Source: a virus. From it: a DNA stretch of 64,000 nt. Both the position numbers and the translations under genes were made by a program. How positions within the stretch are numbered: position 1 is the first letter of the stretch; each line of letters begins with the position of its first letter. Under the pieces are notes generated by a model, which was not told where the DNA came from, did not search any database, and saw only the letters and a list, made by a program, of their open reading frames with translations. Below are positions 137 through 26,007 of the stretch, one piece after another. The stretch is taken from the IMG/VR virus record IMGVR_UViG_3300011115_000879, positions 32,001-96,000 of that record. The stretch is one strand, 5' to 3'.

Positions 137-913
137 ATGAAAATAGTTGCAATCAGTGATACACACAATAGACATAAACATCTAACATCAGTTGGAATGG
201 GAAATATACTCCCTGATGGTGATTTACTAATTCACGGAGGTGACTTTAGTGGTATGGGACATAAAGGTGAAGTAGAATCATTCTTAAAATGGTTAGTTCA
301 ACAAGCACCTCGTTACACACATGGTATTGTATTCATAGCAGGTAATCACGATATATCATTTGATCCTAAATATGGTGAGTATGATATACAAGATGAATTA
401 GGAATAGGACCTAAACAGAAACCGCTTTGGCTTAGAGGACTGTTAGCAACATTACCAAGTAATGTTCGTTACTTAGAAAATAGTGATGTAACGATTGATG
501 GAGTTAAAATATGGGGTTCACCTATTACACCTTGGTTCAATGGTGATAAATGGGGATTCAATAGACATAGAGGTGATGATTTAGTAGAGGTATGGAAACA
601 AATACCAATGGACGCTGATGTAGTTGTAACACATAGTCCAGCAGCATATAAGCTAGATTATGTACCTCGCAATGCTGAGTATACAGGATGTGAAGGATTA
701 AGATATCGACTTGGAGAAGTAAAACCACTAATTCATATCTGTGGTCACATTCATGAAGCGTACGGATACGACTATGATTATACTGAGTCTGAAACGAGTA
801 TAAATTATTTCAATGCTAGTATCTGTAATCACCAGTACGAACCTGTGAATAAACCATGGGAGATTGAGGCTGACTTTAATCTAAGAAAAATAAGCGGTAA
901 TTTTATTTTATAA
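137..913 (+). CDS. Calcineurin-like metallophosphoesterase (MPPED-like)
   Basis: Motifs SDTH, GGDF, GNHD, VTH and GHIHE in canonical order. Confidence 0.9.
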   Translation: MKIVAISDTHNRHKHLTSVGMGNILPDGDLLIHGGDFSGMGHKGEVESFLKWLVQQAPRYTHGIVFIAGNHDISFDPKYGEYDIQDELGIGPKQKPLWLRGLLATLPSNVRYLENSDVTIDGVKIWGSPITPWFNGDKWGFNRHRGDDLVEVWKQIPMDADVVVTHSPAAYKLDYVPRNAEYTGCEGLRYRLGEVKPLIHICGHIHEAYGYDYDYTESETSINYFNASICNHQYEPVNKPWEIEADFNLRKISGNFIL

Positions 914-9635: not shown

Positions 9636-10057
9636 TGTTTTTGTATCGCAAGGGTGACGAACAATTGTTATGTGTGTATAATTGGATTTTGTGTTAAGGT
9701 ATGTTGTACGTTGTGTATGTGGAATGTTCGTTATGTGGGTGATGTGGCGTGTTGTGGCAGGTACATTTTTAGCCTTGCCTCTCCAAACACTTTTTTAAAG
9801 CAAAAGATATATACGATTTTTTTAGCACAATTTTGTACGTACATTCACTGAGGTAATAAGTTCTTATATTTATCGACGTACAACAGCATTATTTTGTTAT
9901 AAGGAACCGGCCTCGCCACAAGTTGAACGTAACGCTAATAATACTCAGTACACCACATATTTTTTTTGCAAAACTGTTACATAGGTAACGGCTTTCCTAC
10001 TGCTTGAATTGGCAAGATTTTGTTACTACATTCACCACGAACCAAAAATTAAGTGTT

Positions 10058-12232: not shown

Positions 12233-12304
12233 GCCGCGTTGGTCAAGAGGTTAAGACGCCTCCCTTTCACGGAGGAATCACGGGTTCGAGTCCCGTACGT
12301 GGTA
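12233..12304 (+). tRNA. trnE: tRNA-Glu (anticodon TTC), CCA not encoded
   Basis: Acceptor GCCGCGT/ACGTGGT, D arm GTC..GAC, anticodon stem CCTCC/GGAGG with loop CTTTCAC, T arm CGGG-TTCGAGT-CCCG. Confidence 0.92.
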
Positions 12305-12621: not shown

Positions 12622-13050
12622 ATGTCTACAAGATCATTAATCGGAAAACAAAACGCAGACAAAACAGTAACGTTTATTTATTGCCACCATGATGGCTACC
12701 CTAGTGGGGTGGGTGATACGCTCATCGAGTCTTACTCCACACCAGAGCAGGTGGATGGTTTACTCGCACTGGGGGATCTGAGTGTACTAGGGAGTGAGCT
12801 GGGTGAGCAACAGGATTTTAATAAACACACCCGTGATTGGTGTTTAGCGTACGGAAGGGATAGGGGTGAGACGGGTACTGAGGCTCAAACAATCGATCAA
12901 GAGATGTACGTGCGTGAGAATTTGAGGGGTGAGGAGTATAAGTATATTTATTCACTAAGCAAGAACTGGGTTTGTTATGGAAATGATGATGATGAGGACG
13001 ATGAGGAGTTCACCATCAAGTATCCAACAACAGAATCCAGTACAACATAA
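12622..13050 (+). CDS. Conserved phage protein (MSTR..YCHxDGYP type), function unknown
   Basis: Motif YCHHDGYPSGVG; follows cassette at 12575. Confidence 0.75.
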   Translation: MSTRSLIGKQNADKTVTFIYCHHDGYPSGVGDTLIESYSTPEQVDGLLALGDLSVLGSELGEQQDFNKHTRDWCLAYGRDRGETGTEAQTIDQEMYVRENLRGEEYKYIYSLSKNWVCYGNDDDEDDEEFTIKYPTTESSTT

Positions 13051-13078
13051 GTTCATACTTTAATTTTAATGGTTAACC

Positions 13079-13110
13079 GGGCCGGAGTTTCTACTCCAGG
13101 CCCTCTCTTT
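13079..13110 (+). terminator. Stem-loop, probable terminator
   Basis: GGGCCGGAG-TTTCTA-CTCCAGGCCC then pyrimidine run. Confidence 0.55.
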
Positions 13111-14276: not shown

Positions 14277-14432
14277 ATGAAACAGTTAATCGCTTACAAA
14301 CGCTTCACAATTAAAGTAGTATCTGGATTTATGTTAGGCTGTATAGTCCTGGATGAAGTAATTGGAATAATGATTGGACCAATCCTCATTGAAATTGACT
14401 TCCCCAAACGCGAATCAAGTAATACAATGTAA
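14277..14432 (+). CDS. 51-aa hypothetical protein (not in ORF track)
   Basis: Between cassettes 14228 and 14442. Confidence 0.6.
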   Translation: MKQLIAYKRFTIKVVSGFMLGCIVLDEVIGIMIGPILIEIDFPKRESSNTM

Positions 14433-14488
14433 TCGGGGCTAGTCAGAATAATAAACATACATTTACATCGAACCAAAAATTGAGTATT

Positions 14489-14701
14489 ATGAAATTATTA
14501 AGTGGAATTATCAGTGTAATATTAGGATTCATGTCGTTATTCATCATGTTCGTTAAGGCGAAAACGGATGTAGAAATGGGAGTGGGATTTGGAGTGTTAC
14601 TAGCAGCAATCATCTTTATGTGCTTTATGATCATGGAAGAACAGAAGCAAGAAGTAGAGCGCCTGCGTGGAGTAATACTGAAGAGTAAGGGTATAATCTA
14701 A
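14489..14701 (+). CDS. Small 2-TM membrane protein
   Basis: Two hydrophobic helices; follows cassette at 14442. Confidence 0.65.
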   Translation: MKLLSGIISVILGFMSLFIMFVKAKTDVEMGVGFGVLLAAIIFMCFMIMEEQKQEVERLRGVILKSKGII

Positions 14702-14721
14702 TCCACAGTCGATAGGCGGAT

Positions 14722-14758
14722 AAGTAAGGTGAGCGAGAAATCGCTCGCCATCTTACTT
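14722..14758 (+). other. Long GAAA-capped stem-loop
   Basis: AAGTAAGGTGAGCGA-GAAA-TCGCTCGCCATCTTACTT. Confidence 0.7.
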
Positions 14759-14791
14759 GGATACTGGGCTCCGGGGCCGTATATTTACTCC

Positions 14792-15110
14792 ACGATCACC
14801 AACGTTAGTCCTCCATCCACACTGTATTCTTAACGCCCGCTTGGACACTACGTTTGGTGATCTTCCTTATCCTTCATATATTTATGAATGTTAAGAATAT
14901 AGTGCGGAAATAAAGACTCCACTCACATTCCCCAACATCAAACCAAGTACACAACCAGCTGAAAGTGCTGGGAGTTCCCCTAGCGGTGGCGGTAGCTAGG
15001 ATCAGAGCTGAATTCACATTGATGAATTAGCCGGGTTAAAATAAGCACGTGACAACGTTCCACGGTTTATCAGGCCCCGGCGGAACGGCTTCCTGTTAGA
15101 GATACGAGCG
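14792..15110 (+). ncRNA. Candidate structured non-coding RNA(s), family not recognised
   Basis: No credible ORF; at least six stems, including a 19-bp near-perfect pairing 14816-14834/14890-14908. Confidence 0.5.
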
Positions 15111-15142
15111 GAAATATAAATACAATAACCCCAACCCACGTT

Positions 15143-15361
15143 ATGAATAATAAGCTCAAAAAATCACCATCACCGCTCCGTCTCCACAAATATACTCCAC
15201 CCGAACAAGCACTCATTAATTCCCTATACACCAACGGGCATCTTAAACCCGCAATGATGGAAGTATGGGACCAATTAAAAGCCGGTAATGAGGTTATCCG
15301 CCGCAATCAGCTCAACTTCCACTCACACATAGAACGAGTAATAAAGAACCAGGTAAAATAA
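15143..15361 (+). CDS. Hypothetical protein
   Basis: ORF only. Confidence 0.5.
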   Translation: MNNKLKKSPSPLRLHKYTPPEQALINSLYTNGHLKPAMMEVWDQLKAGNEVIRRNQLNFHSHIERVIKNQVK

Positions 15362-15398
15362 AAATTAACCGTCAGAATAATAAGCGTATATTCACGGC

Positions 15399-15632
15399 AT
15401 GAAAAATAAGAACATGACACCAGCAGTAGAAAAAGCGAATGACTTAATCGATGATTACTATAACATGTTAATGGATAATATAGACGATGAGTTCATTAGA
15501 CGATTAGTAGCTATACGGTGTGCATTAAAGGCAGTAGATGAAATAATAAACACGCTCACCAATTCATGGTGCGTGATATCAGATAAGGAAAACTGGGACG
15601 AGGTAAAACAACAATTAGAAAACAGCTATTAA
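15399..15632 (+). CDS. Hypothetical protein (MTP.EKA..CAL.AVDEI type), paralog of 16473
   Basis: Follows cassette at 15371; shares motifs with 16473..16712. Confidence 0.7.
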   Translation: MKNKNMTPAVEKANDLIDDYYNMLMDNIDDEFIRRLVAIRCALKAVDEIINTLTNSWCVISDKENWDEVKQQLENSY

Positions 15633-16116: not shown

Positions 16117-16472
16117 CTAGACGCCCAGCCTATAGATCCGAGGAGCGTGAGCCTTAGAGCTCGCGCTTCCTCTATTGAGATCGAGCCGATAGCGGTTGCG
16201 TGCGGCCCGATAGCGGGGTGGGTGCGGAACGGCCCCACGCTAATCGCGGTACATCGATGGGGCGTGTGCGGCGCGACAAAAGGTATGGGTATTCTCAACA
16301 CACACACGATCTTTAACTATCGACAGTATATACGCATATCCCCATAAACGAACCCCAAATTCCGAAATAACCCTTTCACCCCAAATTCACAAAATCCCAA
16401 CTCTAACTTTTAACAAAATTTTACGTGTCGGCAAGATATATACCGTATATTTATCACATAATACCAAATAAC

Positions 16473-18898: not shown

Positions 18899-19678
18899 AT
18901 GTCATATTACGAAGAAGACGTAAACGTATTTCTAGATAATGAATTTGGAACAGTAGCATTAAATAAACGTGGACAACCTCGTCAACGTAGACCAAAAGAA
19001 CCTCGTATTTATTTTACTGAGGATACTGATAATGCAATTATTGAATATCTAGACTCCTCAGATCAATCATTTCGTAATCAGCTTTATAGGGAGCGTATTG
19101 AGTACGCTTTCTATAAATTAGCTGAAAATATAATCCATACATTCAAATTTTATTATACTGACTCAGATACTATTGAGGAATTAAAACATGAAGTAGTAAC
19201 GTTTCTACTTGAGAAACTTCACTTATACGATCAATCTAAAGGTAAAGCATTTTCTTACTTCGGCACTATTGCCAAACGCTACCTAATCGTTTATAATAAT
19301 AATAATTATAAAAAGCTTCAGGAACATGCTGAAGTAGAGGAAATAGATGACGATAAAGTTATTTTATACGATACTATCCGTACAGCAGAAGAACAAGAAG
19401 ATCCAAATACATTTATAGATCAGTACATACGATACGTAGATAAGTATTTATATAATATATTTCCTAAATCTCAAGATGCTAAAACAGCAGATGCTATTAT
19501 GGAATTATTTCGTAAACGTGAAACATTAGATATATTTAATAAAAAAGCATTATATATCTATATTCGTGAAATTACGGATACTACAACTCCTCAAATTACT
19601 AAAGTAACTAAAAAACTAGATAGTTTACGTACTAAATTATATAATGAATATTACCAACACGGATATATAAGAAATTAA
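18899..19678 (+). CDS. Phage RNA polymerase sigma factor (T4 gp55-like, region 2)
   Basis: KLAENII..F.Y..E.....LEKLHLYD.SKGKAFSYFGTIAKR resembles sigma region 2 of late sigma factors. Confidence 0.7.
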   Translation: MSYYEEDVNVFLDNEFGTVALNKRGQPRQRRPKEPRIYFTEDTDNAIIEYLDSSDQSFRNQLYRERIEYAFYKLAENIIHTFKFYYTDSDTIEELKHEVVTFLLEKLHLYDQSKGKAFSYFGTIAKRYLIVYNNNNYKKLQEHAEVEEIDDDKVILYDTIRTAEEQEDPNTFIDQYIRYVDKYLYNIFPKSQDAKTADAIMELFRKRETLDIFNKKALYIYIREITDTTTPQITKVTKKLDSLRTKLYNEYYQHGYIRN

Positions 19679-23123: not shown

Positions 23124-23537
23124 ATGCCTATACCTACTACCGTACGTGTTAATCCCTTAGATTTGCGAAAAAATATCGCAATTGGGGTATCTCTTCCCTT
23201 TAATGGCCCTTCAGGACCATTTAATAGTACATATAGTACTCAAGATCAAATTAAATCTAATTTAATTAATTTAATACTTACTAATAAAGGTGAAAGAGTA
23301 TTTAATCCTGAATTTGGTTTAGGACTTAGAGATATATTATTCGAAGGTATTACAGATGATATAGTACCTATTATACAGGATTTAATTGTAACAGGTACTA
23401 ATATGTTTATTCCCGAAATAATAATAGTAGAAACTATAGTAGATTTAAATAAAGATGATAATAGTATATCTATAACCGTTAATTATAGATTAAAAATTTC
23501 AGGAACAGCAGATCAAATTACAGTACAATTTATATAA
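23124..23537 (+). CDS. gp25: Baseplate wedge protein, gp25/GPW family
   Basis: IKSNLINLILTNKGERVFNPEFG motif. Confidence 0.9.
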   Translation: MPIPTTVRVNPLDLRKNIAIGVSLPFNGPSGPFNSTYSTQDQIKSNLINLILTNKGERVFNPEFGLGLRDILFEGITDDIVPIIQDLIVTGTNMFIPEIIIVETIVDLNKDDNSISITVNYRLKISGTADQITVQFI

Positions 23538-23539
23538 AA

Positions 23540-25378
23540 ATGGCAGATAATAAAATATCATATTTAAATAAGACATTTAGTGATTTTAAGACAAATCTTG
23601 TAAATTACACCAAAACATATTTCCCTAATTCATATAATGATTTTTCAGATGCTAATCCAGGAGCAATATTCATTGAATTAGCTTCATATATAGGTGATGT
23701 AACATCATTTTATACTGATACTCAAATACAAGAAAATTTCTTATTATATGCTAAAGAGCGAGAAAATTTATTTGCATTATCTTATGGTTTAGGTTATTCT
23801 CCTAAAGTATCATACGCCTCAAACGTAGTAGTAGATATATTTCAACTTATACCTTCTTCAGGAAGTATAATAAGTGTTCCTGATTTAAGATATGGTATGA
23901 TTATACCGGAAAATACAATAATAACATCCATAAGTACTGGTACTAAATTTTTAACCATTGATAAAGTAAATTTTACAGATTCTACTGATACTGAAGTAAC
24001 ATATATAGATACAAACTACTTTTTACTTAAAAAATCAATTACTGCTATTTCGGCTGAAATTAAATCTACTACATTACAATTTAGTACACCACAAAAATTT
24101 CAAATAGCAACTATTAGTGATACTAATATATTACAAATACTAGATGCAACTGATGCTAGTAATAATAAATGGTATGAAGTACCATACTTAGCCCAATCCT
24201 CAATATTAACATCTATAGCTAATCCAACATCCGGAAGTGATGGTGTCCCATATTTAGTTAATTATACTAAAGTACCTCGCCGCTATGTTTCAAGATTCTT
24301 ATCAGACGATACATTGCAATTAGAATTTGGAGCTGGAGTAGCTAATGCATCTGATGGTACATTATTACCTAATCCTGATAATATACAATTAGGATTAATA
24401 CCGGGTATATCTAATTTATTAACTGGGTATAATAAAGCTAATGTATTCTTTACACAAGAGTATGGTTTAGCTCCAAGTAGTAATATTACTGTTAGATATC
24501 TTGTAGGCGGTGGAGTAACAGCTAATATATCATCAAATGACTTAACTTCAATTAATACATCAGGGGTTTATTTTCCTAGTGGAATAACAGGAGCATTAGC
24601 AGATCAAATTAAAGCTAGTATAGCTTCAACTAATCCAGGAGCTGCTTCAGGTGGTAGAGGTGCTGATGAAGTTGAAGAAATACGCAATAATGCCTTATAT
24701 GCATATCAATCACAATTACGTGCTGTAACCAGAGAAGATTATATTGTTAGAGCATTATCATTACCTGCTAATTATGGTAATGTTGCTAAAGTATATGTTA
24801 CTCAAGATGTAGCTCAAGAAATGATACCTACATCAACTGTATCTACTACTGAAATGCGTAACCCACTATCATTAGATATGTATGTATTAGCTTATGACAA
24901 TAATAAAAAATTAACAACAGCTACTAATACATTAAAATCTAACTTAGCTACTTATATTAATCAATATAGAATGGTTACTGATGCGGTTAATATTAAAGAT
25001 GCATTTTATATTAATATAGGTGTAGACTTTGATATTACTGTACAGAGAGATTATAATAATAGTGATGTTGTAACTAATTGTATCCTATCTTTACAAAATT
25101 ATTTTGACATAGATAAATGGACAATTAATCAACCTATATCTATATCTGATATTATTTCTAATTTAGTAAAAGTAAAAGGAGTACAATCTGTAGTTAAAAT
25201 TGAGATAACTAATAAACAAGGAGGAAATTATTCTCCATATGCATATGATATATCAGGGGCAACTAGACAAAATAATATATATCCTTCAATCGATCCTAGT
25301 ATATTTGAAGTTAGATATCCTAACACTGATATACAGGGTAGAGTTTTAGGTTTAGGAAGTACTACTCTAGTATGTTAA
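23540..25378 (+). CDS. gp6: Baseplate wedge protein, T4 gp6/baseplate J-like
   Basis: YNDFS..PG..IEL.SY.GD, FG.G, GG...E..EEIR, RAVT.EDY. Confidence 0.85.
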   Translation: MADNKISYLNKTFSDFKTNLVNYTKTYFPNSYNDFSDANPGAIFIELASYIGDVTSFYTDTQIQENFLLYAKERENLFALSYGLGYSPKVSYASNVVVDIFQLIPSSGSIISVPDLRYGMIIPENTIITSISTGTKFLTIDKVNFTDSTDTEVTYIDTNYFLLKKSITAISAEIKSTTLQFSTPQKFQIATISDTNILQILDATDASNNKWYEVPYLAQSSILTSIANPTSGSDGVPYLVNYTKVPRRYVSRFLSDDTLQLEFGAGVANASDGTLLPNPDNIQLGLIPGISNLLTGYNKANVFFTQEYGLAPSSNITVRYLVGGGVTANISSNDLTSINTSGVYFPSGITGALADQIKASIASTNPGAASGGRGADEVEEIRNNALYAYQSQLRAVTREDYIVRALSLPANYGNVAKVYVTQDVAQEMIPTSTVSTTEMRNPLSLDMYVLAYDNNKKLTTATNTLKSNLATYINQYRMVTDAVNIKDAFYINIGVDFDITVQRDYNNSDVVTNCILSLQNYFDIDKWTINQPISISDIISNLVKVKGVQSVVKIEITNKQGGNYSPYAYDISGATRQNNIYPSIDPSIFEVRYPNTDIQGRVLGLGSTTLVC

Positions 25379-25407
25379 ATATTAATCTTAGATAAAAATA
25401 AAGTAAA

Positions 25408-26007
25408 ATGAACCTAGAAAAACTAAAAGGACACATTCCCGATAGCGTTATAGCAATGCTACCAGATACAATCGCAAAATTTGAATTAAATACTCCACTC
25501 CGCCTAGCACACTTCCTAGCTCAAGCAGGACATGAGTCAGGTGGCTTCAAAGCAGTAAACGAAAATTTAAACTATGGAGCTAAAGGTTTACGCGGTATCT
25601 TTGGTAAATACTTTCCAACAGATGCTAAAGCAGCTTTGTACGAACGCAAGCCAGAAAAGATAGCTAACCTAGTCTATGGTGGTAGAATGGGTAACGGAGT
25701 AGAAGCTACAGGAGAGGGTTGGAAATTTAGAGGAAGAGGTTATATTCAATTAACAGGTAAAGATAACTATACTGCTTTTGATAAGGTAGTAGAAGAGAAC
25801 ATACTTGAACAACCTGACTTGGTTGCTACTAAGTACCCAGTATTATCTGCAGCTTGGTTCTTTCATAAAAATGGCTTACATAAGATAGCGGACGGTGGTG
25901 CTACAGATGCTGTAGTTACTTCTGTGACGAAGAGAGTTAATGGCGGTACTATTGGTTTACCTGATCGTATTAAACATTTTAAAGAATATTACTCATTATT
26001 GGCTTAA
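25408..26007 (+). CDS. Glycoside hydrolase family 19 endolysin
   Basis: FLAQ.GHES, ENLNY, RGRGYIQLTG..NY, VNGG..GL.DR. Confidence 0.92.
   Translation: MNLEKLKGHIPDSVIAMLPDTIAKFELNTPLRLAHFLAQAGHESGGFKAVNENLNYGAKGLRGIFGKYFPTDAKAALYERKPEKIANLVYGGRMGNGVEATGEGWKFRGRGYIQLTGKDNYTAFDKVVEENILEQPDLVATKYPVLSAAWFFHKNGLHKIADGGATDAVVTSVTKRVNGGTIGLPDRIKHFKEYYSLLA

Follow-up and report, generated by a model that had tools for sequence, protein, structure and literature searches.

A GC-rich, ORF-free gap among early-gene cassettes

The DNA analysed here (the window, 64,000 nucleotides) was taken from an IMG/VR virus record of 159.6 kb, of which it spans bases 32001-96000; the record has ~30% GC, and all its genes lie on the + strand. 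Because a baseplate wedge protein, a portal and a large terminase are encoded in the window, we assigned the phage to the T4-like myoviruses. Within a region of small early-gene cassettes lies a 441-nt gap without open reading frames (14702-15142). The gap occurs a single time in the genome, and its GC content is 0.47, compared with 0.30 for the genome. It is bordered by the gene for a small membrane protein (ORF14480) on the left and by ORF15143 on the right (Table 1). Six-frame translation, tblastn with 10,865 ORFs of relatives and a peptide comparison with the related contig L179, described below, were negative for a hidden ORF or pseudogene in the gap.

The whole gap folds better than shuffled sequences (z = -3.0 for the + strand and -4.4 for the - strand), and these scores stem mainly from a terminator-like hairpin behind ORF14480 and from the region of the helix B:B' described below. 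A first-pass annotation of the locus had recognised no known RNA family in it. This holds in a search of Rfam 15, which gave no match in the gap, the best matches of the region at relaxed E-values being noise; the only match at the gathering threshold in the window was a tRNA-Glu at 12233-12304. Regions poor in ORFs also occur in the whole genome (G000) at 23521-25608 (window -8479 to -6392) and at window 9636-10057; these gaps measure 345-1074 nt, and their GC content is likewise raised (0.36-0.45). Separately, a GC-rich folded element at 16117-16420 contains a 66-aa ORF with a GTG start (16147-16347), for which tblastn found homologues of ~50% identity in 12 related loci, so that this element is at least partly coding.

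Table 1 Features of the gap and its neighbours in the window, and of the corresponding module on contig L179
Feature	Position	Strand	Sequence, basis or remarks
ORF14480	14480-14701	+	73-aa membrane protein; left neighbour of the gap
Hairpin, terminator-like	14721-14758	+	after the stop of ORF14480; MFE fold; terminator scan 14728-14749; local z ~ -3
Promoter P1 (predicted)	14757-14788	+	TTGGATAC-N13-CGTATATTTAC; -7 box at 14780-14787; predicted start ~14792-14794
Arm A (5' arm of A:A')	14794-14805	+	begins at predicted RNA1 5' end; fold of 14793-14889
Segment B	14816-14834	+	TCCACACTGTATTCTTAAC; apical part of the A:A' hairpin; complementary to B'
Arm A' (3' arm of A:A')	14850-14862	+	one bulged T; fold of 14793-14889
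Pyrimidine-rich tail	14863-14876	+	after A'; read from the sequence; counterpart in L179 of 11 nt
Promoter P2 (predicted)	14877-14885	+	TATATTTAT; -7 box without upstream box; predicted start 14889-14890
Segment B'	14890-14908	+	GTTAAGAATATAGTGCGGA; first 19 nt of predicted RNA2; complementary to B
RNA2 body (predicted)	14909-15142	+	ORF-free; also long leader of ORF15143; stretches with C>G
ORF15143	15143-15361	+	72 aa; right neighbour of the gap
L179 box 1	555		TATATTTAT
L179 arm A	570-579		GAAGCCGAAC
L179 segment B	600-617		CGTTTATCTCTTATTTGC
L179 arm A'	641-650		GTTCGGCTTC; pyrimidine-rich tail next
L179 box 2	662		TATATTTAT; 4-nt spacer to B'
L179 segment B'	675-692		GCAAATAAGAAATAAACG

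Promoter motifs of the gap

The first-pass annotation had pointed out two TATATTTA boxes. Located here at 14780 and 14877, both are promoter-like on the basis of their motifs. The first belongs to a predicted promoter, P1, whose sequence TTGG(ATAC)-N13-CG-TATATTTA follows the layout of Bacteroidota sigma-A promoters, with a 19-nt spacer between TTG at -33 and the TAnnTTTG-like -7 box. In the published consensus the -7 box occupies -12 to -5 (PMC9723704), and the starts predicted for P1 and P2 follow from this spacing. They coincide with the first bases of two 5' helix arms, A for P1 and B' for P2. The -33 element of P1 is overlapped by the 3' foot of the terminator-like hairpin.

P1 is the only host-type consensus promoter in the genome of the window phage, where TTGGATAC-N13-CGTATATTTAC is present in one copy only. 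Low-GC phages (contigs of 26-38% GC) share the 19 specified bases of P1 in at least 119 stretches of IMG/VR, and in the stretches examined the motif stands nearly always at most 65 nt before an ORF. It usually precedes a leader like GGGGTAAATAAGG...AAATAAAGGTTATG (loci L181-L299). At two loci (L200 from ~7363 and L218 from ~3970, both on the + strand) the motif is followed by long, mutually similar stretches of non-coding look, rich in GGTAA and TATAC, which may be non-coding RNAs.

P2 consists of a -7 box alone. The genome has 21 copies of this box, TATATTTAT, on its + strand and three on its - strand; 15 of the 21 + strand copies lie at most 45 nt upstream of an ORF, and the genes preceded in this way include that of the terminase and others in the structural region. 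P2 thus falls into a box-only class that is presumably late, for which the T4 late promoter TATAAATA and its sigma factor gp55 offer a parallel (PMC3014915). A conserved, weakly sigma-like gene is located at 18899-19678. A third arrangement is shared by ~39 early cassettes in the window, which carry G[GT]CA-N12-TAYATTYA followed by a cgttaaccaaaaa leader; neither P1 nor P2 has the G[GT]CA element. Both P1 and the cassette promoter of ORF14480 lie upstream of P2, and the hairpins on the path of read-through transcription are the terminator-like one and A:A'. In several genes of the whole genome (window and flanks), for example at window 1825, 56460, 118097 and 122749, and in the ORF15143 homologue of L179, an ATG follows the TATATTTA box after only 1-5 nt, a spacing that suggests leaderless or near-leaderless mRNAs for these genes. 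Three promoter classes are thereby defined in the window phage, and one of the motifs, found in at least 119 stretches of viral contigs, is useful for genome annotation.

Two interleaved helices

All sequences quoted by the first-pass annotation are present at the positions it gave. Its central observation, the complementarity of B and B', was reproduced: over 19 nt there are 17 Watson-Crick pairs, one G-U pair and one A-C mismatch, and the two segments form a 19-nt inverted repeat with 55 nt between the arms, B' being placed 56 nt downstream of B. Pairing of this quality was equalled in none of 1000 dinucleotide shuffles of the gap, and the 150-nt segment 14800-14949 reaches z = -5.0 on the + strand. 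The best partner of B anywhere in the 160-kb genome is B', and no convincing trans targets of B or B' were found elsewhere in the genome. The stem GATCACCAA/TTGGTGATC is also real and grows to 12 bp with one bulge, forming the helix A:A'. B lies within A:A', and A' in turn within B:B', so that the helices are interleaved; they could be mutual alternatives or form jointly as a pseudoknot. The tail that follows A' is not a classical U-tract and may act as a weak terminator tail for RNA1, the transcript predicted to start at P1.

A second module conserved by compensatory change

A full HMMER scan of 1.84 billion cluster representatives returned exactly one relative of ORF15143, a 62-aa protein (P0001) with 41% identity (E = 4.9e-6), which is encoded on L179, a metagenome contig of 1355 bp. 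L179 derives from a related phage and carries the same GTCA-N12-TACATTCA early promoters as the window phage, and its ORF15143 homologue is directly preceded by the same TTGGATAC-N13-CGTATATTTAC promoter. Behind this homologue follows an ORF-free gap of ~430 nt that carries the module in diverged sequence (Table 1). The element order common to both phages is box, A, B, A', tail, TATATTTAT, 4 nt and B', with the 4-nt spacing between the second box and B' being identical. The L179 helix was reached in one of 1000 shuffles.

Because L179 was retrieved via protein homology alone, it constitutes an independent test, and it supports both helices. Covariation in homologues had been named by the first-pass annotation as the check on its pairings, and in this one relative A:A' and B:B' are both kept by compensatory change. 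Compared in register, B:B' has eight identical pairs and eight pairs changed on both sides, and A:A' has six identical and four changed on both sides, with no one-sided change in either; taken together, the two helices were scored with 12 two-sided changes, no one-sided changes and 14 unchanged pairs. All compensatory pairs are Watson-Crick, and the one central mismatch of B:B' occupies the same position in both phages. These counts were made by script on two sequences, since MAFFT lost the register of the arms even with N-padded loops, and they cover the two instances of the module found in all, in the window phage and in L179. Short extra outer helices beyond B' occur in both. Predicted cofolding of RNA1 with RNA2, the transcript that would start at P2, gains -8.6 and -7.7 kcal/mol for the cognate pairs and only ~ -3 kcal/mol for the cross pairs.

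The order of module and ORF differs, the module preceding ORF15143 in the window and following the homologous ORF in L179, where it cannot serve as a dedicated 5' regulator of that ORF. The -7 box of P1 stands in the window where L179 has its separate box 1, and we infer that a rearrangement between TATATTTA boxes would explain the difference in order.

Rarity of the module

Around ~4000 boxes of the TATATTTA type in 2.6 Mb of phage loci, a comparable bracketing helix was found at three sites only, in the window, in L179 and in a further locus, L289. In a promoter-agnostic scan for interleaved helices, the window and L179 were the only places where a box was combined with arms that are not AT-rich. 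At L289 (~2071-2300 in + coordinates, on the - strand), a terminator hairpin and a TTGGATAC-N13-CGTATATTTAC promoter stand between the arms of a 17-nt inverted repeat, TGTGTGTTTTAATTATA/TATAATTAAAACATATA; the 3' arm of this repeat is a 5' UTR that ends 6 nt before the ATG, so that this site resembles the masking of a start region at T4 e and soc, in a phage with a P1-type promoter.

The module was not found in ~110 related phage records, two of which are at least 93% complete, and a degenerate module pattern matched, among 106 records, only the window's own genome. In relatives with an ORF14480 homologue, densely packed ORFs occupy the position of the gap. Comparison of the gap with the INPHARED phages (blastn) and with 80 loci around the sigma-like gene of relatives (blastn and nhmmer) gave no match, while five near-complete related genomes and 50 further records gave chance matches of 16-32 nt only. 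A metagenome scan with the pattern GTTAAGAATAYAGTGYGGA returned chance matches in unrelated genes, exact patterns from other parts of the gap matched neither viral contigs nor genome contigs, and a pattern for the anti-leader element of the same phage (see below) matched an unrelated contig only. With a covariance model built from a single sequence (R1), L179 did not rise above noise (11.2 bits, E about 1).

The predicted RNA2 body and ORF15143

Between B' and ORF15143 the module is followed by a non-coding stretch, the predicted body of RNA2. Local alignment and k-mer chaining revealed no significant local similarity and no collinear k-mers between this stretch and positions 693-967 of L179, where the body after B' shows no excess of structure (z = 0.06). 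Stretches with C>G are present in both bodies; from their composition they could suit Rho loading, and they are not decisive. In neither phage does an ORF longer than nine codons begin within or close to B', and folding predictions that include or omit B give the start region of ORF15143 the same accessibility (0.72 versus 0.71).

ORF15143 has no promoter of its own, and its sole homologue adjoins the second copy of the module. It is predicted to form a three-helix bundle (AlphaFold pLDDT 80), and this fold had no match in the PDB or the atlas. A profile of the two proteins (ORF15143 and P0001) detected no further relatives, peptide patterns of ORF15143, ORF14489 and ORF12622 retrieved no loci, and a word-based protein search found nothing.

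A proposed two-promoter RNA module and its alternatives

The reading that we favour, and to which we give about half of our credence, is that positions 14757-14908, a core of 130 nt, function as a two-promoter RNA module that has not been described. P1, as a strong promoter of the host type, would start RNA1, whose first bases would form A:A' and carry B in the upper hairpin, with the pyrimidine-rich tail next. P2, of the box-only class used by structural genes, lies between B and B', so that RNA2 would begin exactly with B'. The first 18-19 nt of RNA2 would be free only if transcription starts at P2; in transcripts from P1 or from further upstream, B would mask B' in cis, and a terminated RNA1 could mask the 5' end of RNA2 in trans. 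RNA2 would then run through its 230-nt non-coding body into ORF15143. This reading implies that both promoters fire, at different times, and that RNA1 terminates. A paired or unpaired 5' end would in turn affect the stability of RNA2, its processing (RNase III), Rho access or the binding of a partner. We prefer this more general form, in which the choice of promoter would mask the 5' end of RNA2, because the masked segment is no start region and the accessibility of the ORF15143 start does not change. The first-pass annotation had proposed either two transcripts or one switch linked by B and B'. That part finds support in the credible promoters, in the predicted starts at the helix arms and in the retention of both helices in L179, while a closed RNA of ~320 nt spanning 14771-15080 does not.

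In a more specific version, which we consider rather unlikely, RNA1 and RNA2 would be a regulator and decoy pair made from one strand, with an immediate-early RNA1 neutralised by, or gating, a late non-coding RNA2 whose 5' end is its exact complement. Such a pair, if real, would be a timing device without a described counterpart in lytic phages, and as the first-pass annotation had framed it the pair would gate an RNA-primed replication origin.

The inverted repeats might instead act in DNA, either as protein-binding sites or, where the DNA is single-stranded or supercoiled, by folding into hairpins or a cruciform, serving as an origin or initiation signal or as an operator pair of P2. We assign this a minor though appreciable probability. 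Watson-Crick compensatory changes carry no strand information and are explained equally well by DNA pairing; the single central mismatch of B:B', kept at the same position in both phages, and the location of the element in a compositional island with altered skew also fit, and T4-type phages use promoter-linked origins. Models at the DNA level do not, however, require that the arms begin at predicted transcript 5' ends, as they do in both phages, and the extra outer helices past B' in both phages also speak against them. No iterons or repeats were found in the gap region, there is no partner protein, and the R-loops of an origin would be disfavoured by a transcript that is partly rich in C and A. 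On balance, the register of the arms with the predicted transcript starts favours a role at the RNA level.

A conventional T4-type device, in which the start of a gene is masked in read-through transcripts and B' serves, or served until recently, as leader to a gene that is small or has decayed, appears improbable to us. The layout agrees with that of the T4 genes e, soc, 49 and I-TevI (PMC3014915) and with that of L289, and B' is A-rich and, compared by eye, resembles the leaders of early genes in the respective phage, with agreement at 9 of 14 bases for the window and at 10 of 14 for L179. Against it stand the lack of any ORF longer than nine codons at B' in both phages and of a conserved peptide in any frame; two independent decays that both kept the pairing are also unlikely.

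It is very unlikely, in our estimate, that the element is non-functional, whether as the remnant of a decayed cassette or as a phase-variable invertible promoter between inverted repeats. Such a view would accord with the mosaic make-up of the early region, with the lack of the segment in the ~110 related records and with the packed ORFs that relatives with an ORF14480 homologue have in its place; inverted repeats flanking promoters are moreover common in the invertons of Bacteroidota. The 12 compensatory pairs without a single one-sided change nevertheless indicate selection, an invertible segment of 55-57 bp would be very short for a recombinase, and no recombinase gene was found near the gap.

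Least probable of all is a single large structured RNA of an undescribed family, ~310 nt in length and closed over 14771-15080. The raised GC content and the folding excess of the whole gap would suit it, but this signal comes from the upstream terminator hairpin and B:B', whereas segments within 14850-15150 are ordinary (z -0.4 to -2.1) and the L179 body has neither excess structure nor sequence or collinear k-mer similarity. The stems that the first-pass annotation had listed downstream (GACTCC/GGAGTT, CCAGC/GCTGG, CCTAGC/GCTAGG and GCTGAATTCA/TGAATTAGC) are present at chance level. The closing stem, CCGGGGCC/GGCCCCGG, is not conserved, and about one 8-bp match of this kind is expected by chance in 441 nt; the 5' arm of this stem also falls within the spacer of P1, ahead of the predicted start. 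With a downstream half that is neither unusually structured nor conserved, and with no Rfam match, an RNA of ~310-320 nt is not supported.

If the two-promoter module functions as we propose, a choice of promoter that sets a 5' end free or paired would carry a classic T4 principle beyond the control of translation. Regulation at the RNA level is almost unexplored in phages of Bacteroidota, whose hosts have unusual promoters and initiate translation without Shine-Dalgarno sequences. The module, with two promoters and two helices in ~130 nt, offers a compact and testable system for temporal control in environmental T4-like phages.

Comparison with known systems

The closest parallels in layout are the T4 genes e, soc, 49 and I-TevI, where the 5' part of an inhibitory helix contains a late promoter, so that masking affects read-through transcripts and spares late ones (PMC3014915). 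P2 is likewise placed between B and B', with its predicted start at the first base of B', and a transcript from P2 would therefore lack the 5' arm; the same is seen in L179. The setting, a T4-like phage with temporal promoter classes, is also shared. In T4, however, the 3' arm hides a Shine-Dalgarno sequence or an AUG, whereas B' is the predicted 5' end of a transcript with no start codon nearby. The module further differs by the additional interleaved helix A:A' with a dedicated upstream promoter that would start at it, and by a Bacteroidota host in which initiation is not based on Shine-Dalgarno sequences.

The c4 RNA of phages P1 and P7 and the CI RNA of P4 are hairpin RNAs encoded upstream on the same strand, whose loops pair with downstream segments and which act in cis or in trans. 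B resembles them in being part of the upstream A:A' hairpin and complementary to B' downstream on the same strand, an arrangement kept with covariation. The covariance model of the C4 antisense RNA, Rfam family RF01695, found no match even at E-values up to 10 at positions 14300-15500 of the window or in L179. The module also shows no sign of RNase P-type processing, its paired segment is not a ribosome-binding site, and the window phage is lytic and has no immunity function, unlike those systems.

Copy-number control in ColE1 uses RNA I, which is made from the strand opposite to that of RNA II. The likeness lies in a short hairpin RNA whose complement forms the beginning of a longer non-coding transcript and which would change the folding of that transcript. 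The two RNAs of the module would, in contrast, both be made from the + strand via an inverted repeat; reading of the - strand of 14650-15250 revealed no promoter box, and the Rfam search gave no RNAI match. No sign of an origin, of an RNase H site or of a G-rich R-loop segment was seen in the module.

Within the same phage, the anti-leader element at 13051-13110 has an antisense-like segment with TTAAC at its end, followed by a hairpin rich in GC and then by a tail of mostly pyrimidines, comparable to B, A' and the tail of the module, and a box-only TATATTTAT stands at 12943, ~100 nt upstream of it. The anti-leader element mirrors the shared leader of ~30 early genes, whereas B has a single partner, B'. 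Taken together, these comparisons suggest that the module is best read as a novel variant on two themes, the late promoter placed within a hairpin of T4 and the same-strand antisense RNA exemplified by c4 of phage P1.
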